Assembly (NCBI RefSeq): GCF_003334305.1
Contig: NZ_QOWS01000003.1
Length of the DNA: 64,000 nucleotides
Source: Escherichia coli
GTDB taxonomy: Bacteria > Pseudomonadota > Gammaproteobacteria > Enterobacterales > Enterobacteriaceae
Reading direction: 5' to 3' (one strand)
Shown: positions 3,697 through 55,983 of the stretch, piece after piece
How the letters are laid out: the number at the start of each line of letters is the position of its first letter
How positions within the stretch are numbered: position 1 is the stretch's first letter
Made by a program: the position numbers and the translations under genes
The notes under the pieces: generated by a model
What the model was told of the DNA's origin: nothing
Databases searched by the model: none
The model's input: only the letters and a program-made list of their open reading frames with translations

Positions 3697-3703
3697 GTGA
3701 AGA

Positions 3704-34213: not shown

Positions 34214-34298
34214 GCCGAAGTGGCGAAATCGGTAGACGCAGTTGATTCAAAATCAACCGTAGAAATACGTGCCGGTTCGAGTCCGGCCTTCGGCACCA
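34214..34298 (+). tRNA. leuX: tRNA-Leu (anticodon CAA)
   Basis: 85 nt, gccgaagtggcgaaatcggtagacgcagttgattcaaaatcaaccgtagaaatacgtgccggttcgagtccggccttcggcacca. It has an acceptor stem gccgaag/cttcggc, anticodon loop tt-CAA-aa, a long variable arm, GGTTCGAGTCC in the T-arm and an encoded CCA. Confidence 0.97.
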
Positions 34299-34499
34299 CA
34301 TCGTATGCAAATCGAGTCGCTCAAGGGCGGCTTTTTTTGTGCCTGAAATCCAGTATCCGCAAGGCTTTCCTCGCTTTTTCACTCAACCTAAGTCAACCTG
34401 ATTCAATCTACATCAACTTACTGATGCGGGTACAACTGCGGGTATTTCCCGGTTCGATTATGTTTGTACCCACACAGGGCCCTTGAAAGGATACTCATC

Positions 34500-35764
34500 A
34501 TGGCTCTGAGTGATGTGAAGGTCCGTTCGGCTAAGCCGGAAGCAAAAGCCTATAAACTTACTGACGGTGAAGGCATGGTTTTGTTGGTCACCCTAATGGC
34601 TCCAAATACTGGCGACTTCGTTATCGTTTTGGCGGTAAGGAGAAGATGCTGGCGCTGGGGAAATACCCTGAAGTCTCGCTGGTCGATGCCAGAGGTCGCC
34701 GGGATGAAGCCCGTAAGTTGTTAGCTAACGGCGTCGATCCTAGTGAGAACAAGAAAGCTGTTAAGGTAGAGCATGAGCAAGAGGTGATAACGTTTGAAGT
34801 GGTAGCCAGAGAGTGGCACGCCAGCAATCAGAAGTGGTCTGCATCGCATAGCGCTCGTGTATTGAAAAGCCTCGAAGATAATCTCTTTGCTGCTATCGGT
34901 AAGCGGAACATTGCTGATCTGAAGACTCGGGATCTGCTTGTCCCCATCAAAGCGGTGGAGTCGTCTGGGCGTCTCGAAGTCGCTGCTCGTTTGCAGCAGC
35001 ATACTACCGCGATTATACGCTTTGCTGTACACAGTGGATTAATCGACTACAACCCCGCTCAAGAGATTGCTGGTGCGGTTGCTACGGCGAAAAGACAGCA
35101 TCGTGCTGCTCTGGAACTTAACCGCATTCCTGAATTGCTTCAACGCATCTATCACTATTCTGGCAGGCCGTTAACCCGACTGGCGGTTGAACTCACATTG
35201 TTAGTTTTCATCCGTTCAAGCGAGTTGCGTTTTGCTCGCTGGTCAGAAGTTGATTTTGATACTGCCATGTGGACGATTCCGGGAGAACGTGAGCCACTGG
35301 AGGGAGTTAAGCATTCTCAGCGTGGTTCGAAGATGCGGACTCCACATCTTGTACCCTTATCTCGACAAGCTCTCACCATTCTGGAAAAAATCAAAAGCAT
35401 GAGTGGAAACCGTGAGCTGATCTTCGTTGGTGATCACGATCCGCGTAAGCCAATGAGTGAGAATACGCTTAACAAGGCCTTGCGAGTGATGGGCTATGAC
35501 ACGAAAACGGAAGTGTGTGGACATGGTTTCAGGACGATGGCGTGTAGTTCTTTGATTGAATCGGGATTGTGGTCGAGGGATGCAGTAGAGCGGCAGATGA
35601 GTCATCAGGAACGTAGCTCAGTACGGGCGGCTTATATCCATAAGGCGGAACATCTTGGGGAGCGAATGTTGATGCTGCAGTGGTGGGCTGATTATCTGGA
35701 TGCGAATAGAATGGCGGCTATCACTCCATTTGACTATGCAAAGATTAATAGTTCTTTTCGATAA
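34500..35764 (+). pseudogene. P4/CP4-57-type tyrosine integrase with -1 frameshift near 34589-34591
   Basis: The N-terminus MALSDVKVRSAKPEAKAYKLTDGEGMVLLV (frame of 34500) continues only in another frame as (H)PNGSKYWRLRYRFGGKEKMLALGKYPEVSLVDAR..., which joins the 372-aa ORF. Catalytic HGFRTMA and RAAYIHKAEH are present downstream. Confidence 0.8.
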
Positions 35765-35965: not shown

Positions 35966-37435
35966 TCAAATAACTCCAAGCTTTGCATACAATTCTTTTT
36001 TCTCTTTCATGCTGTTATCCAATGGTGCTACTCGCAATGCCGCTTTCAAATAAGCCGCAGCACCAGAGTAATCACGCATTTGCTCGCAAACTAAAATGAG
36101 TTGGCTTAACACATGGAACTTCATTGGAGTTGTTTGGTTTACTTTCTCCAATAGTACTCTTGCTTCAGAATATTTCGCTTCAAGGCCAAGGATAGATGAT
36201 TCTAAATACATGGTGGCCGCGTTTTCTGCTTCAGCTTGCTTTCGTTGCAACAGCCAGAAATTTGCTTGACTGATATTGCGTAACTGTAGGTTTGCCTTAA
36301 CTATCAACTCGAACAAAGCTGCTGGTTGAGTCAATTTACCCTCAAGTAAGATCGCTTTATTATCTTCTACAACTTTTTCAAAGTCGAATAAGCGATTGGC
36401 GCGATACAAGGCAATAAGTTGCTGATGTAAAGCTTGTAGATCTTTACTGCGGCTATACTCCTGCGACGCTAATTGAGCAGCTTTTTGGTAAGATTGATCG
36501 GACATTGCTTCAAGTACCGCACTTGACCAGTCCTGAGCAGGTTTAGTTTGAAAAACGGGAGCAATAGCACCAACTTTTAATTGCTTAGTGGCAGCAGAAT
36601 CAAATGCATGAATTAAGTCGGAAATAGTGGAAAAGCGATCCTCCGCTCGTTTTTGTAAACAAGTAAGAACCACTTGTTCCAGGTCCGTATGAATAGAGCT
36701 ATTAATCTCTGTCGGAAGCTTGAAAGGTGCGTGGCGCTGAACTTGTGCTGGCGTATCATGGGGCAGCTTTCCTGTCAGCAGCTGGTATAGCAAAACACCT
36801 AAGCTATAGATGTCGCCCAATAGTAGCTCTTCCAGGCTGCCTCTACGGCTATCGACGTTGGAGAACTCTGGGGCCGAATACAGCACAGTCCCGCCATTTT
36901 CACGGGTACGAACGTAAATTTCTTCTGGTAAAGCTGAGCTGCCAAAGTCCGTCAACTTCACCAGGTCCCGCTCTCCAACCAAAATGTTATGTGGCTTAAT
37001 ATCTCCATGAGATATTGGTACTGGTAATTCGGCCAAATAATGCACAGCACAGAGCACTTGACGATATATTCTGAACAACCGTTCATAGGTCTGGCCAAAA
37101 TTACGCTGCCTGTCATCGAGCTTTTGCGCCAGGGTTTGGCTGGGAAAATACTCCATTTCAATATAGAACCATTCATTATCTATACGGCCCATATCAAAAA
37201 TTTGCACAATATTTTCGTGCGGCTCGACGTTTAAAAGCTCTTTACCTTCGGCAAGCTGACGGTCTTCCCGAGTAATATCCTTAGGGATTTTTACTGCGAC
37301 AATTTTTCCATCTTTCAGGCGTTCCGCCCGCCATACCCAGCCATGGCTGCCATCACCAAGGCATTCAAGTAACAGGTATTTGTCACCAAGGCGTTTATTC
37401 GTCCCTGGCAAAAAATGTGCTGATTTTATATTCAC
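35966..37435 (-). CDS. Hanks-type Ser/Thr protein kinase with C-terminal helical (TPR-like) repeat domain; last gene of the nine-gene operon
   Basis: 489 aa with a GTG start overlapping the upstream stop (GTGA). Kinase subdomains are LGDGSHGWVW (Gly loop), VAVKIPK, HGDIKPHNILV, DFGSS, LYSAPE and DIYSLGVLLYQLLTG. The last roughly 200 aa are alpha-helical repeats. Confidence 0.85.
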   Translation of the reverse strand: MNIKSAHFLPGTNKRLGDKYLLLECLGDGSHGWVWRAERLKDGKIVAVKIPKDITREDRQLAEGKELLNVEPHENIVQIFDMGRIDNEWFYIEMEYFPSQTLAQKLDDRQRNFGQTYERLFRIYRQVLCAVHYLAELPVPISHGDIKPHNILVGERDLVKLTDFGSSALPEEIYVRTRENGGTVLYSAPEFSNVDSRRGSLEELLLGDIYSLGVLLYQLLTGKLPHDTPAQVQRHAPFKLPTEINSSIHTDLEQVVLTCLQKRAEDRFSTISDLIHAFDSAATKQLKVGAIAPVFQTKPAQDWSSAVLEAMSDQSYQKAAQLASQEYSRSKDLQALHQQLIALYRANRLFDFEKVVEDNKAILLEGKLTQPAALFELIVKANLQLRNISQANFWLLQRKQAEAENAATMYLESSILGLEAKYSEARVLLEKVNQTTPMKFHVLSQLILVCEQMRDYSGAAAYLKAALRVAPLDNSMKEKKELYAKLGVI

Positions 37436-37974
37436 ATCAACACCTCATAGTGAATTCTGTCCAAAACAATCATGTTCAGGTTTTTGATAAATAAAAAGCG
37501 ACTAAATACCACCTCAACATCAGGAGCGGCGATTACTTGGGTACCCGTGGACGAAGTAAAACCCATACGGCATATGTCTTTCAGTTTTTGAGTATCAGGT
37601 ACACCTACTAAGCCTTGGCTCCAGGCACTGAGGACCAGGGTTTTGGGGCAATGATTCCAGCGCTGTGCTGCTTCCAGTAAGTTTTTTAATTTTTCTTCCA
37701 GCTTTTGCTGCCCCTTCGCTGAACCATCAAAGCGTTCAAATTCGATTAAACACACAGGCGATGCAGAAGATTTATGAAACCAGCCCGAGTCAGAGCGAAT
37801 ATCAGCACCAAATGTCCCTGGAGCCGGGCATTCCACTACCGCCATAAATGACTGTTCATGCCCGAATGTATTCCAAACGCTACAGCCCAGGCTGTGGACC
37901 AATACATCCTGGTCCAATAGCTTACCGCTTGCTAAAAGTGGAAATGTCTCATTTACCCAGGCAACTTCAGGCAT
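37432..37974 (-). CDS. Hypothetical protein (about 180 aa); a possible nuclease-like fold is speculative
   Basis: The ATG at 37974 is preceded by AAGGTG, which overlaps the HerA-like stop (TAAGGTGCCTATG). The track GTG start at 38031 is less likely. The only hint of a PD-(D/E)xK-type site is ADIRSD...CLIEFERFDG...K. No motif was confidently recognised. Confidence 0.55.
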   Translation of the reverse strand: MPEVAWVNETFPLLASGKLLDQDVLVHSLGCSVWNTFGHEQSFMAVVECPAPGTFGADIRSDSGWFHKSSASPVCLIEFERFDGSAKGQQKLEEKLKNLLEAAQRWNHCPKTLVLSAWSQGLVGVPDTQKLKDICRMGFTSSTGTQVIAAPDVEVVFSRFLFIKNLNMIVLDRIHYEVLM

Positions 37975-37981
37975 AGGCACC

Positions 37982-39667
37982 TTAGCCACTGAAAGAGCCC
38001 CAAACACGCAGTACCTCTGGTGATTCACCACCGTGAATTAATGCCTTACTACCAACTTTAACAAGCAGTGGTGCAGGGATTGAACGACCACACACCAAAG
38101 CTTCACCGGTTGATAAACTCGGGAGTTCCTCCAGATCAGCTTTGCTCACCATATCTGATGCTTTAGCTATAAATCGTTGATCGTCAGGGTTCTTTAAGCG
38201 CATCGTAATTAGCGTATTGCACTGAGAGGTCACATCTGAATCTAATTTCGATGGACGCTGGCTCACAATGCCAAATCCAACGCCAAATTTACGACCTTCA
38301 CCAGCGATCTTTTTAATAATGCGGTGACTGACTGCGTTGCCGCCGGCCGGGGCAAAATTATGACCCTCTTCGTAAATGATAAAGCATGGGCGCAGCGGGT
38401 CCGTTTTGCTCGAGGCTGCTTTTAATATTTCACTAGATAACAGTGCACAAATGACTTGCTTAGCGGTATCACTCAAACCTTGTAAGTCAACAACGACTAA
38501 ACGCCCCTGTTGATTGCTCGGGCGACCCACCATTTTGTAAATATCAGTTGGCTCAGCCATTGTTGCGCTGTAAAAACTTTTAGCTTCATTAAGCACACGT
38601 GAAAGCTTCATCGAGGCGACGGCGGCACTACGGCCTGATAACGCCTTCGCCTCAGCTTCAGAAAGGTCGTCCCACTCTTTTAACTCTTCAATACCATCAC
38701 CTAATAAGAAGCGTAGGCGGTTAATATCTCGTGGCTCAGTCTTATCTGCAGAGCGCCAATAACGAATTGCAACATCGAGTACTCGTTGCTGCGGTTCCGT
38801 TAAGCCAGGTAATATTTCAGCAATATCGTCCATTTCAAAATGGTCAAACTGAAGCGCTAATGGCGTATTCTTACTGGCGTATTTATGTTTAAAAGATTCA
38901 TGCTGCGGCGAGTAAACCTGAATACCTGCACCGGCGGCTTGCAGCTTTTCAAAGGTCTGTTTTATCAGTGGCAGTGCTTCTTGATCACGCTTATCGTCAG
39001 TGGCTTCTAAGAAGCTTGAGAATTGCAGATTACCGCCAGCGAGGGCTTTACCGTATTCACCATGTGGGTCAAATACTACTACCGTACCGTTATTAACCGC
39101 AACTAAACGCTCAATAATGCGGCCAACTGTATAAGACTTACCTGAACCCGTCATTGCCAGAACAGCCAAATGCTCAGTGACCAACTTGTTCACGTCAATA
39201 AAAACAGGAACTGTATTCTCACCTTTGTCGTAGCCTACTAAGTTACCTAAGTGCAAACTGGAGTGTTCATTAAATTCGTAAAAATCACTCAAAAACTGAA
39301 AATCGACGGTTTCAACAGCGGTACCCGGGTTAAGCGGGCGACGTGGAATTTTGATTTGACGAGTAACAGGATCGCGGTAACCAACCAGCTCGACCTGAGC
39401 AAACATATTCTCACCAGTTACATTCGCACCGGGCAAAAGCTCAAGCTCGGTTACACCATCGCCAAAGCCGGCGTTATAGAGCATATTAGTACGGCTTATC
39501 TTGGTCACTCGCCCCAGTACGGCGACTTGCCCCTCATCTTTGCGTTCCTGGTGCATAATGCGTACAAACTCACCACGGCGTACTGAAAACGAGTCTTGTA
39601 CAACCATAGTTAACTGACTGGCATCACCAGTGTTACCGACTAATTTACCTAAAACTTTATAAGCCAT
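37982..39667 (-). CDS. HerA/FtsK-like (DUF87-type) P-loop ATPase
   Basis: 561 aa with an N-terminal barrel-like segment, Walker A LAMTGSGKSYTV and Walker B-like PCFIIYEEGHNFAP, the typical HerA arrangement. The start overlaps the upstream gene by 11 nt. Confidence 0.8.
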   Translation of the reverse strand: MAYKVLGKLVGNTGDASQLTMVVQDSFSVRRGEFVRIMHQERKDEGQVAVLGRVTKISRTNMLYNAGFGDGVTELELLPGANVTGENMFAQVELVGYRDPVTRQIKIPRRPLNPGTAVETVDFQFLSDFYEFNEHSSLHLGNLVGYDKGENTVPVFIDVNKLVTEHLAVLAMTGSGKSYTVGRIIERLVAVNNGTVVVFDPHGEYGKALAGGNLQFSSFLEATDDKRDQEALPLIKQTFEKLQAAGAGIQVYSPQHESFKHKYASKNTPLALQFDHFEMDDIAEILPGLTEPQQRVLDVAIRYWRSADKTEPRDINRLRFLLGDGIEELKEWDDLSEAEAKALSGRSAAVASMKLSRVLNEAKSFYSATMAEPTDIYKMVGRPSNQQGRLVVVDLQGLSDTAKQVICALLSSEILKAASSKTDPLRPCFIIYEEGHNFAPAGGNAVSHRIIKKIAGEGRKFGVGFGIVSQRPSKLDSDVTSQCNTLITMRLKNPDDQRFIAKASDMVSKADLEELPSLSTGEALVCGRSIPAPLLVKVGSKALIHGGESPEVLRVWGSFSG

Positions 39668-40814
39668 TATTCAATCCCTCATCGAGGCCTGCCAACCACC
39701 CTGCCTCAATATCATTATTCTTTAGTGCCTGGTGTAAACCCTGGCGATAAAACGTAGCAAATTTAGGTAAAATACCAAGCTGTTGATAACCAAGTAATTG
39801 TGGCAACGGCATTGCATTACCTTTGTTTTGCATATCCAGCACCATCAGGCGAGAGGCAACTAAATCGAGATCAGCACTTTTCCATTCTGGTTCGTCACCC
39901 GCTAATTGCACCATTTTTATCTGTCCACCTCGGGCACTACGGAAGTGAAAACCAATTAGACCTTGCTTAGCTTCAATATTGGGTTCAATGCGCTTTTCTT
40001 GTTCAGACAAACGAAATGCGATGGTGCGCGAATAGTTGCCTAAAATGCCATTGATAAATCGCAAATCTCCCACGCCAACCAAACTTTCATCCAGTCCTTC
40101 CAGATTTTGCATCAACTCTTTAGAAAACCCATCAGATGCTAAAATTTGTTTGCGTCCTTGTTCGGTACGTAAATCTTGTTTGGCGATACTTACAATGGCA
40201 CTAAAGCGCTCAGCCAAAATGCTCGCAAGTACTACACCATTTTGATTCCAGGGAAAAATTCTGGAGCGATGGTTTTGCCAAAAAGTTTCTATCACTTGTC
40301 TGGTTTTTTCGTACTCTTGTTTATGACGGACATTTCTCTCCAGCGGAGCCATATCCCGTGCTAAAAACAACGGCGTATCCAGCAAAATTAAATCGCCAGG
40401 CTCATAACCTAAAAGTTTTTTCTCAACTAACTGATAAGCCTGACGAATTTCAATTAAATCAAGCCGTTTACGCTGAGCTTCAAAATCAATATCATCCAGT
40501 TCTGATACCGAGTCGCTACCCACCGTGCTGACTTTATTGTCATCTATTAACAAATCTGTGCGCACTGCTGCACTGGCATAAATAAAACCACCCAATACCT
40601 TGTCTAAGCACGATTTAGTCGCAATACCGGCTACGCGTAAATTAACAATTGTGGGCTTGGGGACCGCTTTCACTAAGCCAGCATCACGGAATAGCGGCGC
40701 CACTTGCTCAATATCACGGACCTGTTTAAGCAAGCGTCCTGCACTTCCCGGTAAGCGAAGCTGGCTATCGATGGCGAGCGATTGCGCTAAATTCATCGTT
40801 TTGTTCTCATTCAT
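39657..40814 (-). CDS. Hypothetical protein (about 385 aa) in the nuclease-partner slot upstream of HerA
   Basis: The ATG at 40814 lies 2 nt after the upstream TAA. There is no clear catalytic motif. LILLDTPLFL faintly recalls the NurA hhhDGxL motif. The gene position matches NurA, DUF4297 or SIR2 partners in HerA systems. Confidence 0.5.
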   Translation of the reverse strand: MNENKTMNLAQSLAIDSQLRLPGSAGRLLKQVRDIEQVAPLFRDAGLVKAVPKPTIVNLRVAGIATKSCLDKVLGGFIYASAAVRTDLLIDDNKVSTVGSDSVSELDDIDFEAQRKRLDLIEIRQAYQLVEKKLLGYEPGDLILLDTPLFLARDMAPLERNVRHKQEYEKTRQVIETFWQNHRSRIFPWNQNGVVLASILAERFSAIVSIAKQDLRTEQGRKQILASDGFSKELMQNLEGLDESLVGVGDLRFINGILGNYSRTIAFRLSEQEKRIEPNIEAKQGLIGFHFRSARGGQIKMVQLAGDEPEWKSADLDLVASRLMVLDMQNKGNAMPLPQLLGYQQLGILPKFATFYRQGLHQALKNNDIEAGWLAGLDEGLNNGL

Positions 40815-40816: not shown

Positions 40817-41665
40817 TTATAGCGTTCCTGTGTGTAGCTGCTCGCCAAGTAATGGGGCATAAGCCCAATATTGCGAGGCTTGTAGGCATGTTTTACCGGT
40901 AGCTGTTATGCCCGCGTCGTCGATAAAATCGTGCTGCCGCAACATCTCACCCCGCTTGACAATATCAAGGCTATTAACATCAAACATCAGCTTAACCGCA
41001 TTATGCTCAGACAACGCTTGTAAGTTCATGCCACCGCCAGCGTAGAGTAATAGCAATACAACTAGATCGTGCTTATCTGGCGTGTAGTCAGTTGATGGCG
41101 CTTTAGGTTCGATTATTCGTTCAGCAATGCCTGCATGGTCCACAAACCAATTCAACCAGCTCACCAGGAGCTCACTATGATCGAGTAAAGTCAGCGACCA
41201 CAAAGGTAACGTGGTAAAGGCTAATAGCCCACTGTTGCTGTGTTTTCGTATGTAGCGGGTATGCACTACATCACCGGCCTGGTGCTGGTAGCGATCTGCG
41301 CTGCCAGTAAAGCCAGCAATAGCCTGGTCTGTTTCACTGGCTAGCAAAGCGGTTAGCCCCGGTTCCTGCCCCCTCAAGCTCGCTGGTACTAACTGCCAAT
41401 CCAGTGGATAGGGCAATTGCGCTAATAAGGTAAATTGTTCTGCTTTCAGGTTTATTACCAAAGCGGCACAACCTGCCTGCATAGCCCAGTGATACAGGTG
41501 CTGCATAGTATTAGCGTCAGTCAACTCTTCTGCTTGCACTATTAACAAACCGCTGGCTGGCGGCGAGCTAATCCAATCCTTCATTAAGGGGGTAGCCCCC
41601 GCAACAGTTTGCAAAAAACGGCCTTTACGATTACTGGCCAGTGCCGCAGATAAATAACGACTCAT
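40817..41665 (-). CDS. Hypothetical protein (about 282 aa)
   Basis: The ATG at 41665 is preceded by a GAGGTGA Shine-Dalgarno sequence that overlaps the TAG of the 1428-aa gene. No recognisable motif. Confidence 0.55.
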   Translation of the reverse strand: MSRYLSAALASNRKGRFLQTVAGATPLMKDWISSPPASGLLIVQAEELTDANTMQHLYHWAMQAGCAALVINLKAEQFTLLAQLPYPLDWQLVPASLRGQEPGLTALLASETDQAIAGFTGSADRYQHQAGDVVHTRYIRKHSNSGLLAFTTLPLWSLTLLDHSELLVSWLNWFVDHAGIAERIIEPKAPSTDYTPDKHDLVVLLLLYAGGGMNLQALSEHNAVKLMFDVNSLDIVKRGEMLRQHDFIDDAGITATGKTCLQASQYWAYAPLLGEQLHTGTL

Positions 41666-41675: not shown

Positions 41676-44600
41676 CTACAAACCAGTGGCAAAGGTAAGG
41701 CGCATTTTTACAATGCCTTTGTCTACAAGTCCTTTCTGTTGCTCAGGTGTTAACACGGGTTCCTGATTTTGGCTCAAAGCCTTATAAATCGGTTGCCAAT
41801 CCGCCAGTGTTAAGCCTGTATCATTTAATATTTGCTCACCTTGACTCTGCCATTTGGCCTGGGTGCTTTCACACACCTGTTGAAGTTCTCTGACACCCAA
41901 ATTGCTCACATCCTCCAGAGTCAACGCTGCTGGTTCCGCTTGCTTTTGAGAAGCCAATAGCGGTTTTAATAACGGCAGCCAGCTGTTTACCTGTGCGATG
42001 GAGTTGCGTCTTACTTGGTTTAGACGCTCTTCAATTTTAAGTAGCTGGCCTTGAATCGGTGTAAGTTGACCGCGTGCCGGTTTTAAAAGCTCTTCTGGTA
42101 AATCCCGTAACGATGAAAACTGCCCATTGCGCAAACTGTTTTGCATACTTTGACGCTTGCTCTCTGCATCACTGGGGAGATCGGCAATAGCATCTTCAAT
42201 GAGCTGTAATTTCATTACCAGTTTTGGTAGCTCTGCAATGTCATCGGCGAACTGATACTCAGCCGTGGCGCTACTAAGCCATTCTTGCAGTTGTTGTGCA
42301 CGTAGTTTTTGCTCTGTGAGGTTATTAACCAGCTTACTAAATCGTTCTTTGCAGTTGCGGTAGCTGGACAAAATATGCCCCTGAATCTCCGCTATCGGCA
42401 ACTGTTGATCATTGTGCAGGTTTAAACCCACTTCTTGCGCTAAGGCTGAAAGCTTGTCATGCGCTCTACCTAAATCGAGTTTACGCAGGTAATGCAGTAA
42501 GGTATCGCTATCTGCTTGCTGCTCTTTTCGGCCAGTGGCACTGCTGGTATCGTCTTTTAACGCTCCATCTAAAATATGACCTATGGTGCGCAGCGTGTTG
42601 GTGTACAGACGTTTCGGAAAATTCGTCAGCGGGGCACACTCTGTTTCAACATCTATGATTAAATCAACGAGTCGGTTGTTGATACGCTCAGCGCTGCACT
42701 CAACAAACTCGGCAAATAAACAGGCCTGTTCAATCCGTTGATAAAGCGAGGTCGTTTTGTCTTCTAAGCTGAGAATATGGGCATCTTTTAGCATAGGCCT
42801 GGAACTATTAAGCGGTTTAACCTTTGCTACCAGCTCCAGCACTTCAGCGCGTTTGTGGATAAGCCCTGCCAATACTTTCGTGTCGTTGGCCTCGACCATA
42901 TCAGCCAATTGTTCTTCTTGCTGTTTGAGCACGTTAAATAGCGATTGTGCTTTTTCCAGCTGCTCTTTAGCTTCCACGGTGACGAAACCCAGCTTATTTT
43001 TACCCAGTGGCGCGAACATTTCATTAATGCGTGCATAACCATACACGCGGCTCATGACTTCCACATTGGCTGCATAGCTGCCCATATCGTTACCACGGAA
43101 CCAGTTTTGCGCTTCTCTAATGGCATTTTCTAAGCGGGAGCGCGGGTAGTGCTCCCAAATTGCCTGTTTTTCTGTTGGATTGGTTAAAGTGAGTAAGTTC
43201 AGCTCTCCACACCACCACATCCAGTCATTAAACACGCCTTTGGCGGTAACACTCGTTTCAGCCACATAGGCGAAATAAAACTGTTGCTTAAAGCCTTCGA
43301 ATTGCCACTTGTGCTTTTTATTAGGGTGAGCAATACGGGCTAAAAATAATGGGATCTGCGCCTGGCTTCGCTGCACATTATTAAGTTCAGTAAATAGCCC
43401 GGCATGTTCATCGGCAGTGTAACCTTTGGCAATATAGCTGCCCGGCACCTTAAGTTTATCCAACAAGCTGCTCAGCTCATTCACTGGCACGCCGTGTTGC
43501 TGCTGTAAATCGAGAATGCCATTTAACTCAGGGTGAGCAATGGCCAGCTGATACCAGCCTTTAAACAACAGGTCTCGGTCATTCGGTGATAATTTACCAT
43601 CTACCTTTAACGGCCAGGCAATTAAACCGCGCTGCTGCAAACGCTGGCGCCACTTGTGAATGGCATCCGTGGCAAAGGTTGTCAGGGCATGCAGCTTGTT
43701 TTTGAATTTCGCGGTAAAGCTGTCGGCAGTTAAATTCACGCCGTGCAACTGACATGCTGCCAAACTTAAGCCAATACGCTCTAACTGGTCTGCTTCGCTT
43801 GGGTTGACATAATGCAGCAGTATCGCATCACGCAACTCATTTCTTTCATCCAGTCGGCTGTATTGCTCCATGAGATGTGCAGAAGCAGTTAACGCTAATA
43901 CTGGCGTGCGACCATTTTGGTGGCTGTGGTTTGCCGCAAAGGTGTGAAGATTGTTCAGCTCAATTAGGTTGCTGACCCAGGCAAACAAGGCTTTACCTTC
44001 TGGGTGAAGCTTAAATCCATCCAGGGTAAGTAAACCACCCTGGCGGCCACGGGGCTCGGTTAAAATGGCCAAAGGTGCATCGTCGCTGCCCGCTTTATTA
44101 CTCAGCAAGTTTTCATCATAGGTCCAGTTGTTATCAAGTAATCTCACAAAGCCCGTTACACGGGCTAATGCCTTGATGAGCGGCTTCTGGCTACTTTGTT
44201 TGCTAAGTTCACTCATTGCCTGTTCATGAGCGTCGCCCATGGCGGGATCTTTAAAAATCAGTGAGTTTTGCTGGGCACTGCGATAGCGCAAATCCAGGCG
44301 CAGTAACATCGCCACACTGGGGCCAATATGCGTTGCTTCGCTGGCGTCCAGTTCGGTAGTTTCACCCACTAGCTTGTGCCATAAGGCATCGGCAGCGAAT
44401 TCAATCGCTGGGTGGTCATACAGCAAGCTGAGTAAGTATTTAAACTCACCTTTTGACAGAGGTAGTAATACCGCGCCTTTATCGCCGCTTGCGGCTTGTT
44501 CTTTAATTGAAAAAGTACGCAGGTTATCCAGCAAAGTATCTAAGTTCAGCGCTTGATCTACTGCAGGGTAGTACCATTCATCTTTATCGCGGCGGAATTT

Positions 44601-45962
44601 GGCTTGCTCCAGGGCTTGTCGGCACTGTAGGCGGTCAATGCTCAGTTTGCGGTAATGAGCGGCTATGGGTTCCAGATCTTCGTTTTTCAGCGCCAGCAAT
44701 TCTGTGGCATAGCCCATTTCAGCTAAGCGCACGGGTAATTGGCCGTAGAGCAAACTACGACATTCGGTCAATAGTGCCTGGTCGCGAGTTTGAATGCCTT
44801 CTATCGCGCCTTTATCCAGCACATGCCTGGCTACGCGGCCAGAGCCTGCCAGCACAGCTTCAAATAAATCGCCCACATCCTTGATACTGCGGCCTGCTTG
44901 TTGGTATTGGCTCAGCACTGCATCCACATTAGCCATGACCACGTTAAACCAACCGAAGTTGGCACCACTCATGGCGTATGCAGCTTCCACTAAACCAGCA
45001 GGGTAATTAAAACCCAGCTTGCCGTCTTTTAAGAGGCTTGCCACATAGTCTGATACATCGGCAAAGGCATTATGCTCAAGTTCCACTAACTCAAAGCGGC
45101 GTGCGACCGATTGAATTTCGCGCAATTGCTGGCCAAGCAGTGGTGAACACAGCGCTACATAGCGCAACCATGGAAGTTTACGGCGAGGGTCTTCCTCTTT
45201 AATTGCTTTACCAATCAGGCGAATGGCCTGGCCATCGAGGCGTTTATTTTGTTCATCTTCCAGGCCAAAGGTGGCGGCTTCTGCAACGGTTTCCAGCTCA
45301 TCCAGCACCACCAACATATACTGCACGCCAAAGCTCTTTAATACTTTATAGGCGGCTTGCACCAAACTGACTACCAGCGTTTGGTCAGTATAGAGGTCTT
45401 CTTCGCTGTGGTTGGCGTTCAGCTGTAAGGCATCTGCTAACAGTTCAGATTTAAAGCCAAATGGCATTAAGCGTTCATAGGCTTGTTTGGCAATTTCACT
45501 TTGAATCGATCCATCAAAGGTTTGGGTGGCCAGTGGTAATAGCGCCTGATATAAACCAAAAGCAAACCAGTTATCCGAGTTTTGATAATCTGATGCCACT
45601 TGCGAGTAGCGAATGTAGAGCGCCAGGTATTTGTCTTGCGTGTCGCGATTAAACAGCTGCTTATCGTGCAGTTGGCCTTGTTCGTCGCGGACAAACCAGC
45701 CCCTTGAACAGTCGTTAATTTGTGCAACCAATTCATGGCCTAAACGTGATTTACCCCGACCCCATTCGGCTTCGACGGCAAACACATGGGCAAAGCGATC
45801 ATCGTCGTGATCCACCGTATGCAAAAAGGTTTGAAAGCGTTTAAAAAAGCGGCTCTGGCCCACTAACGGGTCGCGAGGTGGATAATCTGATACGCCCGTC
45901 GCCGCCCAGCGATGTTGTTTTGCCAGGCTATCAACCATCTGTTCGTTTAATTCAAAACTCAT
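41676..45962 (-). CDS. Giant (1428 aa) P-loop NTPase with long helical C-terminal region
   Basis: Walker A-like EAEWGRGKSRLGHE sits near residue 65 and Walker B-like YMLVVLDELE near residue 215. The remainder is helix-rich with no motif I can name. Its ATG overlaps the upstream TGA (ATGA). Confidence 0.7.
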   Translation of the reverse strand: MSFELNEQMVDSLAKQHRWAATGVSDYPPRDPLVGQSRFFKRFQTFLHTVDHDDDRFAHVFAVEAEWGRGKSRLGHELVAQINDCSRGWFVRDEQGQLHDKQLFNRDTQDKYLALYIRYSQVASDYQNSDNWFAFGLYQALLPLATQTFDGSIQSEIAKQAYERLMPFGFKSELLADALQLNANHSEEDLYTDQTLVVSLVQAAYKVLKSFGVQYMLVVLDELETVAEAATFGLEDEQNKRLDGQAIRLIGKAIKEEDPRRKLPWLRYVALCSPLLGQQLREIQSVARRFELVELEHNAFADVSDYVASLLKDGKLGFNYPAGLVEAAYAMSGANFGWFNVVMANVDAVLSQYQQAGRSIKDVGDLFEAVLAGSGRVARHVLDKGAIEGIQTRDQALLTECRSLLYGQLPVRLAEMGYATELLALKNEDLEPIAAHYRKLSIDRLQCRQALEQAKFRRDKDEWYYPAVDQALNLDTLLDNLRTFSIKEQAASGDKGAVLLPLSKGEFKYLLSLLYDHPAIEFAADALWHKLVGETTELDASEATHIGPSVAMLLRLDLRYRSAQQNSLIFKDPAMGDAHEQAMSELSKQSSQKPLIKALARVTGFVRLLDNNWTYDENLLSNKAGSDDAPLAILTEPRGRQGGLLTLDGFKLHPEGKALFAWVSNLIELNNLHTFAANHSHQNGRTPVLALTASAHLMEQYSRLDERNELRDAILLHYVNPSEADQLERIGLSLAACQLHGVNLTADSFTAKFKNKLHALTTFATDAIHKWRQRLQQRGLIAWPLKVDGKLSPNDRDLLFKGWYQLAIAHPELNGILDLQQQHGVPVNELSSLLDKLKVPGSYIAKGYTADEHAGLFTELNNVQRSQAQIPLFLARIAHPNKKHKWQFEGFKQQFYFAYVAETSVTAKGVFNDWMWWCGELNLLTLTNPTEKQAIWEHYPRSRLENAIREAQNWFRGNDMGSYAANVEVMSRVYGYARINEMFAPLGKNKLGFVTVEAKEQLEKAQSLFNVLKQQEEQLADMVEANDTKVLAGLIHKRAEVLELVAKVKPLNSSRPMLKDAHILSLEDKTTSLYQRIEQACLFAEFVECSAERINNRLVDLIIDVETECAPLTNFPKRLYTNTLRTIGHILDGALKDDTSSATGRKEQQADSDTLLHYLRKLDLGRAHDKLSALAQEVGLNLHNDQQLPIAEIQGHILSSYRNCKERFSKLVNNLTEQKLRAQQLQEWLSSATAEYQFADDIAELPKLVMKLQLIEDAIADLPSDAESKRQSMQNSLRNGQFSSLRDLPEELLKPARGQLTPIQGQLLKIEERLNQVRRNSIAQVNSWLPLLKPLLASQKQAEPAALTLEDVSNLGVRELQQVCESTQAKWQSQGEQILNDTGLTLADWQPIYKALSQNQEPVLTPEQQKGLVDKGIVKMRLTFATGL

Positions 45963-47260
45963 AACGACGATCCTTGAAGGTTTATTCTATTGGCGGCGCG
46001 TTTTTTATTGGCATAGCAGTTTTGCGCCAGTTGCTTAATGGTCCGTTGTAACGTTTGGCTTTTGTAGCCAAATAGTGGTGCTAACGGCAGGCTATAACAG
46101 GCATCGCTGAAGCTTGTATGAATTCGATATTGGCCGGCCTCTCCACGACCCGCCTCGGTAAATTGCCAGATTTTTTTTGCCAACAATTCGGCAATGAATG
46201 AGCTCAGGACGCGGTTTAGGCGGTTGATGCTTTCCGTGTTCGCATCGAGTGCCGGGTAGAGGGGTATATTGAGCTCACCGAGCAGAAGCACAAGAAACTC
46301 GGCCAAACTACCCAGACTCACCTCATCACCTTCAATGCCCTGTACCGCCACATTTATTTGACCGGGGGCAAAGGCATTTTGCCCGGCAGGTAAGGTGAGC
46401 AACAAACCGCCACGTTGCTCGGCAGCCCAGGCATCTTGCACAAAGATAATTAGACTGAGTAAAAATAACCAGGGCTGTTGGGCGAATAGCTCGGTAAGCG
46501 GCATGTTGTCATGACCCGAGCGGGACACCAATAACCAATCGGCATTGGGTTTAAGGTTATGTTCATCAAGCAAGGTATTAGGGAGTGCTAACAACCGCCC
46601 ACTACACCAGTTATTTGTCAGTTGTTTTGCGGTGACATCCACCGCTTGTATAGGTGCCGGTGGTTCATTTTGTTCGCTCACGGTAAACAAGGTATAGCTG
46701 GTGCGCAAAATACGACATAGCGCGGGAATGGCAGCATTGTCGTTTAGGCTATGACCGAGCAAATCGCGTTCGGTTTGTGCCAGAGGGCCGGCAATGATTT
46801 GCGGCGTGGTGGCAGTGCTTTCCAGCTGGGCTAAGACCCATTCACTGGCATTGCCCAGTTGCTGAATGAGTTTAACCAATACCATTGTGTCACTCATCGT
46901 GCCTGCTTCCTGGCAGCGAGCGGCGGCTAAATTGATCCAATGTTGGCGAACATCTGGGTTTAAGCCCAACAACGCTAATTGCCATTCACCTGACTGGCTT
47001 AAATCGTTAAAGGCATCAAGCAATGGTGCAGTGAGGCTAAAGGCGCTAACGATATCCGTTTCAGCGTCGTTCTTTTTCGGCTGTATTATTGGTTGTAGCA
47101 GTGACCTAAGGGCAGGCACAGCCGCCAATAACAATGCTGCTTTGTTGGCGTTCAAACCACCTTGTTGCCAAAGCTGCAGGCAGAGGTTAAGTGCCGCTTC
47201 GCTATTTACGGGGTCGTTATATTGCCTGGTTGTACTGCTGTCCGTGCCCCTTGTCTCCAT
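45959..47260 (-). CDS. Hypothetical protein (433 aa)
   Basis: The ORF starts 2 nt after the S-subunit TAA and ends in an ATGA overlap with the giant NTPase gene. No recognisable motif. Confidence 0.6.
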   Translation of the reverse strand: METRGTDSSTTRQYNDPVNSEAALNLCLQLWQQGGLNANKAALLLAAVPALRSLLQPIIQPKKNDAETDIVSAFSLTAPLLDAFNDLSQSGEWQLALLGLNPDVRQHWINLAAARCQEAGTMSDTMVLVKLIQQLGNASEWVLAQLESTATTPQIIAGPLAQTERDLLGHSLNDNAAIPALCRILRTSYTLFTVSEQNEPPAPIQAVDVTAKQLTNNWCSGRLLALPNTLLDEHNLKPNADWLLVSRSGHDNMPLTELFAQQPWLFLLSLIIFVQDAWAAEQRGGLLLTLPAGQNAFAPGQINVAVQGIEGDEVSLGSLAEFLVLLLGELNIPLYPALDANTESINRLNRVLSSFIAELLAKKIWQFTEAGRGEAGQYRIHTSFSDACYSLPLAPLFGYKSQTLQRTIKQLAQNCYANKKRAANRINLQGSSL

Positions 47261-47262
47261 CT

Positions 47263-48738
47263 TTACTCTTCAGCCTCCGCTTGCGCCGCCTCTTCCAGCA
47301 AACTGTATAACTCATCCACATCGCTAAATAGCGGTGTGGCACCTTCAATGGCATAACCCTCAGCGCTCAGTTTGCTTAAAATCGCTTGATCAAAGCTGCT
47401 GTCGCCATCTTCCAGGGCTTGTTGGGCCTGGATTAGTTGTTGCTCAGTCAGTTGGCCTTCGATTAATGACTCAACTAGAGTTTTGGCAGATGCTGTTAAC
47501 TTTTTTGCATATGCTGCCGTAGTAACGGCTAGTCTCAGCTTACTTCCTATTTCTCTATTCTTCGCTATGTCAATCGGAATCAGAATATTTAACAGGTTTT
47601 CTGAAGTCACTTTTGGTACAACGCTGCCAGTAGTCACACCTTTCCAACACGGAAAGTGTTTATCCAGGAACCTACAAATAGACTCAATATCATATTCATC
47701 TTTTACCTTTAAAACCCAAACATGGTTGTTTGCCCAAAACTTTCCATCAGCTACATTTGCACAGCCAATAGAGCCATCTTGCGCAATAATCAGATATTTA
47801 CCGTTGAAATTGAATTCGGTATGAGTATCTATTGGACCTGATGCGCCATAGTAAAAATATGGTCCGGGTACTCTGTCTTCCGATTTAATAGGGTCGCCAC
47901 ATTTGCATTTACTAATGAAATTAGATAGTTTTGATGAATTCCTAAAGGTCATTTGACTATCGGCCGCACGTGCAAACTCAGGAGCTAAAGACACTGCTGA
48001 TAATACCTGTTGTTTCATTCTTCTAGGTTTCAATGTTAATGAATCAACAAGGTTGAAGTGAAATAAATCTTTAATTTTTCTATCAGCCATTCCTTCAAGT
48101 CGTTTCGCCCAAGCGCGTAACTGCTCGGCTTGGCGAACTTTATCCCCGATGTATTTTTGGGCTAGAGGTAAAACTTTAGGAACCGCTAGCGAGCGGACAC
48201 TTGGGAAGTCAATTGCAGGGCGAGTTGCGCCATATGCTTCCTTCCAGATCGCTACTTGTCCGGTTTTGCTATTCAAATATGCCACCAAGAAATAGGCGTC
48301 AACTTTTTTGGGATCGGGCTTGAATCTGACTGAGTGCTGACTAATGTTGGCCGGTAGATGTTTAGCTGACACAACAGCCGATTTACCAAATTTTGCACCA
48401 GTAATCGTAAGTAAAACGTCGCCATCCACTAATCGGCTGCGCTTTAATTTTTCATCATCTTCATCGTTAATAAAAACAGCTTCTTCAGCTTGCAAGAACA
48501 TTTCTTCAACTTCAGAAGTGCGATAAAACTTAACACGGCCTTTTTCTAAATAATTTGCTCCTAAAGGTGTTGCGCCACTAGCCACCCCGCGCTTTGAATC
48601 AATTACCGCTTCTAGGGGCAAAGCACCTAGGTTGTCTTTTATCTTATTAATTTGTCTTTCAAATCGCGGTTGATAGTGCCAAGGATCAATCCGCCTTTCA
48701 GACAATTGTTCGGGTGTTCTTTTAAAAATAGTTGCCAT
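47263..48738 (-). CDS. Type I-like restriction-modification specificity (HsdS-like) subunit with two target-recognition domains
   Basis: About 491 aa. TRD1 carries RIDPWHY..., GDVLLTITGAKFGKSAVV and NISQHSVRF. A conserved helical spacer (QKYIGDKVRQAEQLRAWAKRLE) follows, then a second TRD (YYGASGPI...IIAQDGSIG...NNHVWVLK) and a C-terminal helix plus acidic tail. The ATG overlaps the methyltransferase TGA (TGATG). Confidence 0.8.
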   Translation of the reverse strand: MATIFKRTPEQLSERRIDPWHYQPRFERQINKIKDNLGALPLEAVIDSKRGVASGATPLGANYLEKGRVKFYRTSEVEEMFLQAEEAVFINDEDDEKLKRSRLVDGDVLLTITGAKFGKSAVVSAKHLPANISQHSVRFKPDPKKVDAYFLVAYLNSKTGQVAIWKEAYGATRPAIDFPSVRSLAVPKVLPLAQKYIGDKVRQAEQLRAWAKRLEGMADRKIKDLFHFNLVDSLTLKPRRMKQQVLSAVSLAPEFARAADSQMTFRNSSKLSNFISKCKCGDPIKSEDRVPGPYFYYGASGPIDTHTEFNFNGKYLIIAQDGSIGCANVADGKFWANNHVWVLKVKDEYDIESICRFLDKHFPCWKGVTTGSVVPKVTSENLLNILIPIDIAKNREIGSKLRLAVTTAAYAKKLTASAKTLVESLIEGQLTEQQLIQAQQALEDGDSSFDQAILSKLSAEGYAIEGATPLFSDVDELYSLLEEAAQAEAEE

Positions 48739-50885
48739 CACTCACCCCGCTTATAAGCCGATACAATCTTATCCAGATCGTTTGCGACACCGGCGTTATA
48801 GTCTTCGATATTGTTTTTCACCACATAACCCAATGTTTCAGCCACTGCCATAAACACGTCGGTTTGTGGCTCGGGCAAAAATTGCTCTGGCTGGTTGGGG
48901 TTAGCATGGCGTTTTTGTAAATACAAAATCGAGGTTTTGGCCCCCGTACCGGAGAGTTTAAAGCAGTCGCTCGGCAATGAAATTACTGCTTTTACAATAG
49001 CTTTACCGCCAACAAACTCGCCGGTTTTTTCGTCTTTTTTCCCCATAATGTACTCACGGACATAACGGTCGCCGGAGTTACATAAAATACCATCAGGCAG
49101 CACTATTAACAGGCGGCCACCGGGTTTAAGCAGTTGCAGGCAGCGGTCGATAAAAAGTACTGCTGGGTCAATAGTGGCACCTACCGGTTGCCAGTTGCCC
49201 TTGCTATCGGGCTTGCTGCCCAGCGCGAGCCCTGCGGTTGTAGGCTGCAGGCTGTAAAACGGCTTTTTATCAGTCCCGCCCGTTCTGCGCAAATCGGTAC
49301 GGTAGCCCGCCCATTTAGGCTCGCCGTTTTCATCCAGCTCTAAATCACCGATATCCTGCCACTTCATTTTCACGTGGTCATACCAGGCGTTGTAGCTATC
49401 AACGACTTTTTTGGTCGGACGAAAACCACCGAGCACTTGCTCCATATTGGCTTCGTAATTGGCTTTTGAGTTTTGACCATTTTTGCCTTTATCAAATTTA
49501 GGCGTACCGAACGGCGGGTTGGTGCAAATCAGGTCAAAGCTATTCGGCTTCAGAGCGTTAGTAGTGAGTGAGTTGTCGGTATAAAAAATCTGCGCTTTGG
49601 GGGCACCTTGCAATGCCATATTCACGCGGGCCAGCATTACCATGCGTGGTGCAGCATCGGCACCGGTAAATGCACAGTCGCGTAATTTTTGTTTCAATGA
49701 TTCTTTTTTATCGTCGGCCAGCACCAGCTTAAAATCGATCCATTTATCAATCTGGCTTAACGCCACCGAGCCAAAACCAAAGGAGCCACAGGTGGGGTCG
49801 CAGAAACGAAAATCGCCATTGGCTAAGCGCGATCGCATTTCATCGTCATCGTCGATGTCGTGCATAGCAATTTCTAGCATGGCCTGTTTTACTGGGTTTG
49901 GTGTTAAATAAACGCCAAGGCCACCTTTGGATTCAAAGTTAGCGCGTAGGAATACATCAAACACTCTGCCTAGTAAATCTCCTGACACATCAGCCAACGT
50001 GCCGTGTTCTTTCGCGATTTTACCGTCGTTGGTTTTTACCGGACCCAGGTTTTGTATTGCTTCCAGCAAATCCTGATAGTTTTTCGCAACAGACAGTCGC
50101 AGGTGTGTTTCTTTACTAAAGATGGGGTTACGTGAGCCATCATCTGAGATCACAACGTAGTTTTCGTGGCTTTTAAATTCCTCAAAGGCGGCTTTGATTT
50201 GGGCAACGGCTTTATCGCCGTGGCTCTCCACATATTGCCAATCAAAGACATCACGAAAACGCAGGGTATTTCCCTCATCATCTTTAAAGGTAAGGTCTTC
50301 ATCGTGATGCAGGCGGAAAGTTTCTAAAAACAGAAGCTTAGCTACTTCTTCAATAATGTCGTTCTTGTCGTTTACCTTGTCTTTGGTAACGCGATAAACA
50401 TTTTCATGGAAGGCATCAAATCGCTGCATTAAGCGTGTATAAACACGCATCGACCAGCGAAAGGTTGGATCACGCTCCATGCGATCAAAGCTACGTAATT
50501 CTTCCAGACCAGGCAGGGTATCTGCACCGTGGGTACCGTCAGATCCATCGGCACCGAACAAGGCCAAAATACGTTGGTTCAAGCCATCGTCCACAACGGC
50601 ATATACTGGCCAGTCACCTTCGATATCACTTAACAGCTGATAGGCTAAATCATCAAACTTTGCAGTGTCAGCGGCGTATTCCCAATGGCCTTCTGTCAGC
50701 GCAATCAACATGACTGGTGGCGTTAAGTTGCCTTCAACCAGGCCTTGAATGAGACCAGCCTTGGCGAATTCATGCTCGGGTAATTCGACCAATGGCTGAG
50801 TAAACTCGGAGTGCTGTTTGACCAGTTTATTGAACAGTGCTTCTAGCTGCTGTTGCGGGTCTTGTTTTTTTGCTTCTTTTGCCAT
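48738..50885 (-). CDS. N6-adenine DNA methyltransferase (gamma class, HsdM-like) with N-terminal extension of about 330 aa
   Basis: 715 aa with motif I FCDPTCGSFGFG, motif IV LICTNPPFG, and an HsdM-like segment DLLGRVFDVFLR...GVYLTPNPV upstream. Confidence 0.85.
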   Translation of the reverse strand: MAKEAKKQDPQQQLEALFNKLVKQHSEFTQPLVELPEHEFAKAGLIQGLVEGNLTPPVMLIALTEGHWEYAADTAKFDDLAYQLLSDIEGDWPVYAVVDDGLNQRILALFGADGSDGTHGADTLPGLEELRSFDRMERDPTFRWSMRVYTRLMQRFDAFHENVYRVTKDKVNDKNDIIEEVAKLLFLETFRLHHDEDLTFKDDEGNTLRFRDVFDWQYVESHGDKAVAQIKAAFEEFKSHENYVVISDDGSRNPIFSKETHLRLSVAKNYQDLLEAIQNLGPVKTNDGKIAKEHGTLADVSGDLLGRVFDVFLRANFESKGGLGVYLTPNPVKQAMLEIAMHDIDDDDEMRSRLANGDFRFCDPTCGSFGFGSVALSQIDKWIDFKLVLADDKKESLKQKLRDCAFTGADAAPRMVMLARVNMALQGAPKAQIFYTDNSLTTNALKPNSFDLICTNPPFGTPKFDKGKNGQNSKANYEANMEQVLGGFRPTKKVVDSYNAWYDHVKMKWQDIGDLELDENGEPKWAGYRTDLRRTGGTDKKPFYSLQPTTAGLALGSKPDSKGNWQPVGATIDPAVLFIDRCLQLLKPGGRLLIVLPDGILCNSGDRYVREYIMGKKDEKTGEFVGGKAIVKAVISLPSDCFKLSGTGAKTSILYLQKRHANPNQPEQFLPEPQTDVFMAVAETLGYVVKNNIEDYNAGVANDLDKIVSAYKRGE

Positions 50886-50935: not shown

Positions 50936-51322
50936 CTAATTTATCAGTACCAGCAAGGGGCCTTTAATCTCTATCTGCGCGTGCTTCTGTGCCAGTTTGC
51001 GTATCTGCTGTTCACTGGTCGTAATACCAGCAGGGAGCTTTTTCAGTACTTGTGCAAGGGGCATGCGCCCACCAGCTTGATGCAACAATGATACCAAATG
51101 TGCCGCGATATCAGGTATAACCTGGTACGTTGCCGTTGTGGGCCCTTTTAGATGATTACTTTGAGGCAATGAGGCAAGCCATAGCGAAACTTGAGACTGG
51201 CTAAAGCCAAGTGTTTGCCAGAGGGTTTGGTTCTCATTAAATACAACGGCGGCGCTTCTGGGAGTTGCTGTTTGCTGAGTTATTAGTTGTTCCAGGCTTT
51301 GTCGCTGGTATTCATGGGTCAT
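50936..51322 (-). CDS. Hypothetical 128-aa protein translationally coupled to McrC
   Basis: Its ATG overlaps the McrC TGA (ATGA). No motif was recognised. It ends 50 nt upstream of the methyltransferase ATG. Confidence 0.55.
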   Translation of the reverse strand: MTHEYQRQSLEQLITQQTATPRSAAVVFNENQTLWQTLGFSQSQVSLWLASLPQSNHLKGPTTATYQVIPDIAAHLVSLLHQAGGRMPLAQVLKKLPAGITTSEQQIRKLAQKHAQIEIKGPLLVLIN

Positions 51323-54730: not shown

Positions 54731-54899
54731 CGTGACTTTTCCTCTGTTGTGACATTACTTATTTTTTAATTAATATGAGGTATTCTAACTATATTGAGTT
54801 AATCGTTGTGACAAGTGCCTGTTATATATACAACTATCTGTTAACTCAGCTCTAATTTAAATACAATGTAAGGTTGTAGGGTGAATGCTGTTATCAACC

Positions 54900-55772: not shown

Positions 55773-55983
55773 TGATATCCCTGGCAGTGAAATAATTGCG
55801 ATCATGCTCGCAAATTTTCGGCTGTTCAAGCCTGCAAGTGAAGATATATTACTTTGATCTCATTTGTTTTTTTGCTGCCTGTGTACCCTAATTGCCATGC
55901 GATGTTGCACCGACGCAAACCACCTTTTACGCCGGAGGAGTTAAAAGCGTTGATGGATGCGAATAAATCAAATTAATGAACGC

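Follow-up and report, generated by a model that had tools for sequence, protein, structure and literature searches.

What does a protein kinase of the eukaryotic type do at the end of a set of bacterial genes that modify DNA and would restrict it? The question is raised by a stretch of the Escherichia coli chromosome of 64,000 nucleotides (contig NZ_QOWS01000003.1 of assembly GCF_003334305.1), which we call the window and which contains the leuX island. The last gene of a cassette on this island lies at 35966..37435 on the minus strand and encodes a protein of 489 amino acids plus stop (WP_001022619.1, "serine/threonine-protein kinase" in RefSeq). We find it reasonably probable that this protein is a catalytically competent Ser/Thr kinase of the non-RD type carrying a tail of TPR repeats, and that it acts as an integral subunit which licenses restriction by a HerA motor and a nuclease in a Type-I-like, methylation-based cassette. 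The evidence comes from the coupling of the gene to its upstream neighbour, the conservation of its catalytic residues, the predicted fold of that neighbour and the constancy of the cassette across species.

We begin with the gene itself. The first-pass annotation of this DNA had the coordinates of the interval right, while the strand needed correcting: the minus-strand frame 37435..35966 is open over 489 codons, and a plus-strand reading of 35966-37435 was rejected, as stops occur throughout it and leave no open frame. The annotation had also proposed a GTG start placed inside the upstream stop, and the sequence bears this out. Two bases are common to the GTG (37435-37433) and to the TGA (37434-37432) with which the preceding gene, p180, ends, so that the two read GTGA, and a GAGG (37446-37443) is found 7 nt upstream; together these elements form a translational coupling signal at 37432..37446 of the minus strand. 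Two other starts were considered and rejected, the ATG at 37437 because a TGA follows it directly and the TTG at 37440 because its frame is that of the upstream gene. For comparison, related loci were collected by scanning one genome per species with a profile of p1428, a large protein of the cassette, which yielded 41 loci; the gene order was read by tblastn, 39 loci had enough flanking DNA to be informative, and 45 kinases were taken from related loci. The 4-nt RTGA overlap between p180 and the kinase gene is kept together with the GAGG in 38 of 45 related loci, and in the remaining seven the two genes overlap by 1 nt or are 1 nt apart. A scan for promoters and terminators around the kinase gene gave a number of sites no higher than in shuffled sequence. 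An identical or near-identical kinase is held by 249 E. coli records, and it is identical in many complete genomes.

The Hanks kinase domain covers residues ~20-285 (36581..37378, minus strand). It matches Pfam Pkinase (PF00069) with 119.5 bits for a cut-off of 31.7 (E 2.1e-34), which is far beyond chance, and all the Hanks subdomains said to be readable in it are indeed there, every quoted motif being present: the G-loop LGDGSHG (G27, G29, G32), IVAVK with K49, the alpha-C helix with E63, the catalytic loop HGDIKPHN with D145, K147 and N150, DFG with D163, SAPE with E190, GDIYSLG with D208 and, in subdomain XI, R267. In 118 aligned members of the family, the G-loop glycines, K49, E63, H143, G144, D145, N150, D163-F-G, P189-E190, D208 and R267 are all invariant, and K147 is conserved in 117. 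The full catalytic set is also conserved in an alignment of 61 sequences; the homologues compared in all diverge to 50% identity. The activation segment, DFGSSALPEEIYVRTRENGGTVLY.APE, is nearly invariant, as is a 19-residue extension at the N-terminus. From what is known of kinase subdomains, a DIKPHN loop and a P+1 loop of the form GT..Y.APE denote the Ser/Thr type.

One can notice that the catalytic loop reads HGD and not HRD, that is, no arginine precedes the catalytic aspartate (the non-RD type). The first-pass annotation had remarked on this in the single protein; it turns out to be the case in 118 of 118 members and in the 45 kinases of related loci, and even in distant representatives at 30-44% identity, whereas 82% of the closest kinases outside the family have HRD. 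The presence of HGD in all 118 members means that it is a fixed trait of the family. Non-RD kinases are generally independent of activation-loop phosphorylation and are controlled by their localisation or by partners.

The family is a compact one. A search of 5.8 billion proteins returned proteins of ~490 amino acids, alignable over their whole length (58-96% identity), from Enterobacterales, Vibrio, Shewanella, Acinetobacter, Pseudomonas, Methylocaldum, Paraburkholderia and many metagenomes; in a library clustered at 50% identity, there are about four full-length family clusters, after which the scores fall to those of generic kinases. Among solved structures, the closest to the kinase are those of the bacterial kinases PknB, Stk1 and StkP, and a Foldseek comparison of the whole model with the PDB returned only kinase domains. 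The AlphaFold2 model, built from the 61-sequence alignment, has a mean predicted local distance difference test score (pLDDT) of 77.6 and a predicted template modelling score (pTM) of 0.51. As far as its residues allow one to judge, the protein lacks nothing that an active Ser/Thr kinase needs and shows no pseudokinase feature.

Two observations on this family stand somewhat apart. First, residues ~59-97 (from alpha-C to the hinge) and 165-182 (the activation segment) are modelled with a pLDDT below 50 despite very high conservation, which may reflect either the shallow in-family alignment or a real conformational plasticity. Second, a 192 kb E. coli plasmid, NZ_CP098193.1, carries at the start of its record (352-1807) a homologue of the kinase at 68% identity, in two pieces; it is the sole plasmid with a member of the family in PLSDB. 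We also looked there for a plasmid sequence annotated as Mad6 with which to compare catalytic loops, and none was found.

The C-terminal part had been guessed to consist of TPR-type repeats, and the model agrees with this: residues 300-489 are folded into 11-12 helices at a pLDDT of ~90. The TPR domain itself (residues ~302-489; 35969..36532, minus strand) is made of five helix-turn-helix units of ~34 residues followed by a capping helix, and the last units carry the TPR signature A20/A27/P32. Pfam TPR_14 matches 51 of the 61 family members and TPR_19 matches 48, while the E. coli protein itself, at 14.3 bits, does not reach the Pfam TPR cut-off of 23.5. TPR domains mediate docking between proteins. 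Divergence in the tail is about twice as rapid as in the catalytic part, the median identity to the E. coli query being 43% for the former and 74% for the latter. Such a contrast in sequence fits a conserved catalytic core joined to an adaptable docking surface.

The gene to which the kinase gene is coupled had been overlooked in the first-pass annotation. It encodes p180 (37432..37974, minus strand; WP_001115385.1), a "hypothetical" protein whose family counts 92 members, all of them "hypothetical" and without any Pfam domain. Sequence-profile searches of the PDB with p180, and likewise with p1428, gave chance matches only; p180 was identified by fold comparison and not by sequence searches. 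Its predicted structure resembles the PD-(D/E)xK restriction-endonuclease fold, with a BamHI-like D…ExE site. The invariant residues of the family are E49, D59/D63, E79-F-E81-R82 and K92 (in alignment numbering, one above the native one); they fall at the positions where this fold has its active site, and their placement on the strands was inferred from the secondary structure and not from a superposition. On the strength of this model, p180 is probably a nuclease effector translationally coupled to the kinase, and the 3' end of the cassette would then read: HerA motor, small nuclease, kinase-TPR.

Nine genes of the same strand precede the kinase gene, and neighbours either overlap or are separated by no more than 50 nt. 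Directly upstream of p180 is the gene of a HerA-type hexameric translocase (37982..39667; this and all the following genes are on the minus strand), with Pfam DUF87 (1.2e-44), a HAS-barrel and a PADLOC HerA match at 1.2e-56. It is preceded by p385 (39657..40814; WP_001004904.1), a conserved hypothetical protein with 57-97% identity across loci, and by p282 (40817..41665; WP_000092642.1), a hypothetical protein which evolves fast (25-91% identity). Then comes p1428 (41676..45962; WP_000007267.1), a large P-loop nucleoside triphosphatase whose Walker A (AEWGRGKS) and Walker B (VVLDE) motifs are invariant; it has a faint match to KAP_NTPase (E 0.14), and its remaining ~1200 residues are mostly helical and have no relative in Pfam or in the PDB. 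Further upstream are p433 (45959..47260; WP_000450024.1), which is hypothetical, an HsdS-like specificity subunit with variable target-recognition halves (47263..48738; Pfam Methylase_S, PADLOC Specificity_I 7.7e-164), and an HsdM-like N6-adenine DNA methyltransferase of 715 amino acids (48738..50885; Pfam N6_Mtase, PADLOC MTase_I 1577 bits). The first conserved gene of the cassette is p128 (50936..51322; WP_000148644.1), which may encode a small DNA-binding regulator of the winged helix-turn-helix type, given faint matches of this kind only (DUF7343 and RP-C N-terminal). RefSeq labels six of the ten products of the cassette "hypothetical protein". When the six unannotated proteins were compared with PADLOC, NCBIfam and Pfam at E values up to 10, nothing usable appeared beyond the faint winged-helix matches of p128 and the faint KAP_NTPase match of p1428.

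This arrangement is not peculiar to E. coli. All ten genes, with order and orientation unchanged and the kinase last (50-96% identity), were found in 39 of 39 informative loci: p128, HsdM-like methyltransferase, HsdS-like subunit, p433, p1428, p282, p385, HerA, p180, kinase. These loci belong to Gamma- and Betaproteobacteria, Desulfobacterota, Fibrobacter, Sumerlaeota and Blackallbacteria. The linkage to the upstream genes, on which the first-pass annotation had staked its interpretation, is thus real, as is the final position it gave to the kinase; only its number of upstream genes, eight, has to be raised to nine. Upstream of the Pseudomonas monteilii, Methylocaldum and Paraburkholderia homologues of the kinase (58-59% identity), the sizes of the products follow the series ~426/1428/275/380/561 (HerA)/192, and in each case the start of the kinase is 4 nt ahead of the preceding stop. 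Within the cassette, conservation is highest for HerA (79-99% identity) and lowest for p282 and p128; p128 was found in all loci reaching far enough upstream. The specificity subunit matches across species by halves only, as expected from swaps of target-recognition domains. In a mirror-tree comparison, which is exploratory and for which no significance test is possible, the distances of all the cassette proteins are correlated (r 0.75-0.97), and the closest correlation of the kinase is with p1428 (r 0.97; partial r ~0.45).

Within E. coli, 207 of 5426 complete genomes (~4%) carry 80% or more of the operon, among them that of the laboratory strain E. coli W. The HsdS-like gene is the sole variable gene of operons which are otherwise 99% identical (92-96% query coverage, in 2-3 pieces), and this pattern suggests swapping of target-recognition domains and several specificities for the subunit. 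About 38 complete genomes hold a decayed cassette from which the part from the methyltransferase to p1428 is deleted and in which the kinase is full-length. In strain 165, for instance (L001, 14892-15760, corresponding to ~41676-50885 of the window), a single deletion joins the start of the methyltransferase gene to the end of the p1428 gene, while p282, p385, HerA, p180 and the kinase are intact and identical, the kinase at 100%. The retention of a full-length kinase where the segment from the methyltransferase to p1428 is gone means that the kinase is not toxic alone, and that the 3' module does no harm when the recognition module is missing.

Two published systems help to place these facts. 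MADS, a methylation-based defence of eight genes, was demonstrated by experiment in Pseudomonas aeruginosa SMC4386, and deletion of its kinase gene mad6 leaves a viable mutant which has lost phage resistance (Maestri et al., bioRxiv 10.1101/2023.03.30.534895). A second system, MADS-like, has eleven genes and was described in silico only, in P. aeruginosa defence islands, beside Type IV restriction genes (bioRxiv 10.1101/2023.03.30.534895, Supplementary Notes). Since the mad6 mutant is viable and its defence is lost, the role of the kinase is more likely to lie in restriction than in protective methylation. The predicted nuclease fold of p180 and its coupling to the kinase changed what we regard as the most likely role of the latter.

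We propose the following scheme. The methyltransferase and the specificity subunit would form a module which marks self DNA and recognises unmodified target sites. The kinase, having no RD arginine, would need no phosphorylation of its activation loop and would be controlled by where its TPR domain docks, be it on a partner from the cassette or on a ligand specific to infection. Once docked, it would phosphorylate one or several proteins of the cassette, the best candidates being p180, with which it is co-translated, HerA and p1428. This phosphorylation would license the HerA/nuclease restriction module to act against non-methylated DNA. We infer four elements of this scheme: the defence against phages by the cassette, the identity of the substrate, the direction of the regulation and the ligand of the TPR domain. 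A more specific version may be put forward only tentatively, and we would not wager on it: the kinase-TPR protein, co-translated with a small BamHI-like nuclease, could be a checkpoint at which the detection of unmethylated DNA, or of a phage protein held by the TPR domain, is turned into the activation of a nuclease driven by HerA.

The main alternative to the licensing of restriction is that the kinase is a stand-by effector of abortive infection of the Stk2 type, whose TPR domain senses a phage protein and which then phosphorylates many host proteins until growth stops. It would be a second layer, called upon once restriction has failed, and would not regulate the restriction machinery at all. 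The fast evolution of the tail, about twice that of the catalytic domain, is what one expects of a surface facing phages, add-on effectors typically stand, like the kinase, at the end of an operon, and no dedicated substrate or phosphatase can be seen in the cassette; in the literature, a role as suicidal co-effectors has been suggested for S/T/Y kinase domains fused to DndF in systems containing HerA. However, add-on effectors are usually interchangeable, and this kinase is never replaced or missing in the 39 informative loci; it is translationally coupled to the nuclease, and its distances co-vary tightly with those of the core proteins. In addition, the loss of the kinase alone abolishes MADS defence, which is a poor fit to a mere back-up. 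We regard this alternative as unlikely, although it is the one to be taken most seriously.

Still less likely, in our opinion, is a control of modification, in which the kinase would phosphorylate the methyltransferase/specificity complex or p1428 and so switch between methylation and restriction. Self DNA would in this way be protected after replication or after acquisition of the cassette, in a manner comparable to the alleviation of Type I restriction or to the interplay of PglW and PglX. In its favour, Pgl/BREX type 2, MADS and the present cassette are all methylation-based and all have a kinase, and the protein with which the kinase shows most partial co-variation is p1428, not HerA or p180. 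The loss of a kinase devoted to protective methylation should nevertheless cause autoimmunity, and the mad6 mutant is viable while its defence is lost. Moreover, the kinase is physically coupled to the HerA and nuclease genes of the 3' end, and it persists in E. coli genomes which have neither methyltransferase, specificity subunit nor p1428. Finally, a non-catalytic pseudokinase scaffold, in which the TPR domain and the kinase fold would serve complex assembly only, seems to us very improbable: pseudokinases and atypical kinases often have non-RD loops, and the N-terminal lobe is poorly modelled, but the phosphotransfer residues (G-loop, K49, E63, D145, K147, N150 and D163, with D208 and R267) are conserved down to 50% identity and the activation segment is almost invariant.

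Several facts weigh against the licensing of restriction by the kinase. That the cassette is an anti-phage defence is argued by analogy and from its position on an island. The analogy with MADS yields no mechanism, because the restriction mechanism of MADS is itself listed as unknown in a 2026 review. The kinase would be the E. coli counterpart of Madl11, the protein kinase of the MADS-like system, by a match of gene order and domain content with a verbal description; and the WYL gene which comes first in the MADS-like system, and which is present in a Pseudomonas locus (see below), is absent from the E. coli cassette, where a McrBC-like pair abuts p128. Family searches detected no FHA domain, phosphatase or other phospho-reader in the cassette, so that the phospho-signalling circuit is incomplete on paper. 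The N-terminal lobe is poorly modelled (pLDDT 34-64) and the geometry between the domains is unreliable at a pTM of 0.51. Finally, the mirror-tree co-variation is a weak lead and not evidence.

We now turn to the surroundings of the cassette. On one side lies the tRNA-Leu(CAA) gene leuX (34214-34298), which is followed by a tyrosine recombinase/integrase (region 34214-35764, plus strand) that is frameshifted in RefSeq; in this strain the island has probably lost its mobility. Counted from the leuX side, the kinase gene is the first gene of the island, and its transcription is directed at the integrase. At the other end, a pair of genes of the McrB and McrC families lies directly upstream of the cassette (51319-55829, minus strand), the stop of McrC overlapping the start of p128, and this McrBC-like pair is itself adjoined by an HNH endonuclease which binds phosphorothioated DNA. 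With the McrBC pair, the HNH enzyme and the cassette, three restriction-type modules are thus stacked on the leuX island. Enterobacterales and Erwiniaceae (L007, L011, L012 and L018) are the only groups in which the McrBC pair stands beside the cassette, and elsewhere the upstream neighbour varies. In a metagenome-assembled genome of Pseudomonas sp. (L023), a gene with a WYL domain (3636-4598, plus strand; WYL 6.2e-12) lies directly upstream of p128; in two other loci (L029 and L044), this place is taken by a gene for a DUF1016/YhcG PDDEXK nuclease and, in L026, by one for a 724-aa HTH_31 protein.

Kinases recur in methylation-based phage exclusion (PglW in Pgl/BREX type 2, Mad6 in MADS), which raises the question of their substrates and of the need for a kinase in a restriction-like system. 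The present cassette offers a compact and tractable case, with a small kinase (489 aa) which has a clean two-domain layout and is coupled to a likely nuclease effector; besides, one of the six cassette proteins left "hypothetical" in RefSeq, p180, now has a predicted fold and a likely function. If it were true, the licensing of restriction by phosphorylation would be a principle of regulation not demonstrated so far in any restriction-modification-like system, and it would explain the recurrence of kinases in Pgl, in MADS and in the present cassette.

How close, then, are the known systems? PglW and Stk2 had been put forward in the first-pass annotation as precedents; Mad6 (PADLOC 1.2e-45) and, by gene order, Madl11 are closer. 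PglW is likewise a Ser/Thr kinase from a methylation-based phage-exclusion operon (Pgl/BREX type 2), but it is a multidomain protein of ~1400 aa, and the NCBIfam PglW model gives our kinase 66.7 bits for a cut-off of 990; the cassette shows no matches to PglX, PglY, PglZ or Brx proteins and no phosphatase. Stk2 of Staphylococcus and PD-T4-6 are Hanks kinases implicated in anti-phage defence, and PADLOC PD-T4-6 matches the kinase at 1e-39. They are, however, stand-alone abortive-infection genes, whereas the present kinase is the tenth gene of its cassette in all 39 informative loci. Membership in the PD-T4-6 family was rejected, since the hidden Markov models of this family also catch housekeeping PknB/PASTA kinases and the match is therefore generic. 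PknG of Mycobacterium and Corynebacterium shares with the kinase the layout of a kinase core between a conserved N-terminal segment and a C-terminal TPR domain, and it too is of the non-RD type. Its activation loop is permissive even when unphosphorylated, and its TPR scaffold couples signal detection to substrate selection. It differs in being a metabolic regulator, much larger, with an FHA substrate and, in mycobacteria, a rubredoxin domain. We would see in PknG an analogy of mechanism and not a sign of membership.

The resemblance to MADS is greater. Mad6 is the top PADLOC match of the kinase, residues 8-319 being aligned with positions 41-351 of 659, that is, over the kinase domain only; both are Hanks kinases encoded in operons with an N6-methyltransferase, an HsdS-like subunit and a HerA-like ATPase. 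The methyltransferase, the specificity subunit and HerA of the cassette give weaker PADLOC matches to mad2, mad5 and mad8. The NCBIfam equivalog cut-offs are all missed, with 116.9 bits for 460 (MAD6), 90 for 400 (MAD5) and 111.6 for 720 (MAD2). HerA matches PADLOC mad8 at 6.6e-26, far behind the generic HerA models (1.2e-56), and has no NCBIfam MAD8 match. No counterpart of Mad1 (helix-turn-helix, HTH), Mad3 (AbiEii/OLD-Toprim), Mad4 (DUF4276) or Mad7 (DptG-like) was found with PADLOC, NCBIfam and Pfam, and the gene order of MADS is unlike that of the cassette. The identification of the cassette with MADS was rejected on two grounds, the equivalog scores under the cut-offs and the Mad1, Mad3, Mad4 and Mad7 counterparts that were not found: the cassette is a relative of MADS and not a member. 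Literature searches for another name of the cassette, or for a functional study of it, returned nothing beyond the MADS preprint.

The best fit is to the MADS-like system. Its published proteins include Madl1 (HTH-WYL), Madl3 (N6-methylase), Madl4 (specificity subunit), Madl6 (ATPase), Madl9 (helicase/translocase) and Madl11 (protein kinase), and four further Madl proteins are hypothetical and have no prediction (bioRxiv 10.1101/2023.03.30.534895). If p128 is taken as Madl2, the cassette fits position by position, with the methyltransferase at 3, the specificity subunit at 4, the ATPase at 6, HerA at 9 and the kinase at 11, the unannotated positions being five in the cassette and four in the published system. 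Type IV restriction genes adjoin both. On this fit, the kinase is of a kind already known, a probable member of the published MADS-like system and a relative of the proven MADS. What is added here is the non-RD loop common to the whole family, the verified TPR fold, the conserved translational coupling and the predicted nuclease fold of p180, as well as the wide distribution of the cassette and its occurrence in E. coli strains that are easy to work with. The published description mentions neither the non-RD loop nor the TPR tail nor the nuclease fold of the tenth protein, and the last of these is new, the counterpart of p180 having been given no prediction in the MADS-like account.

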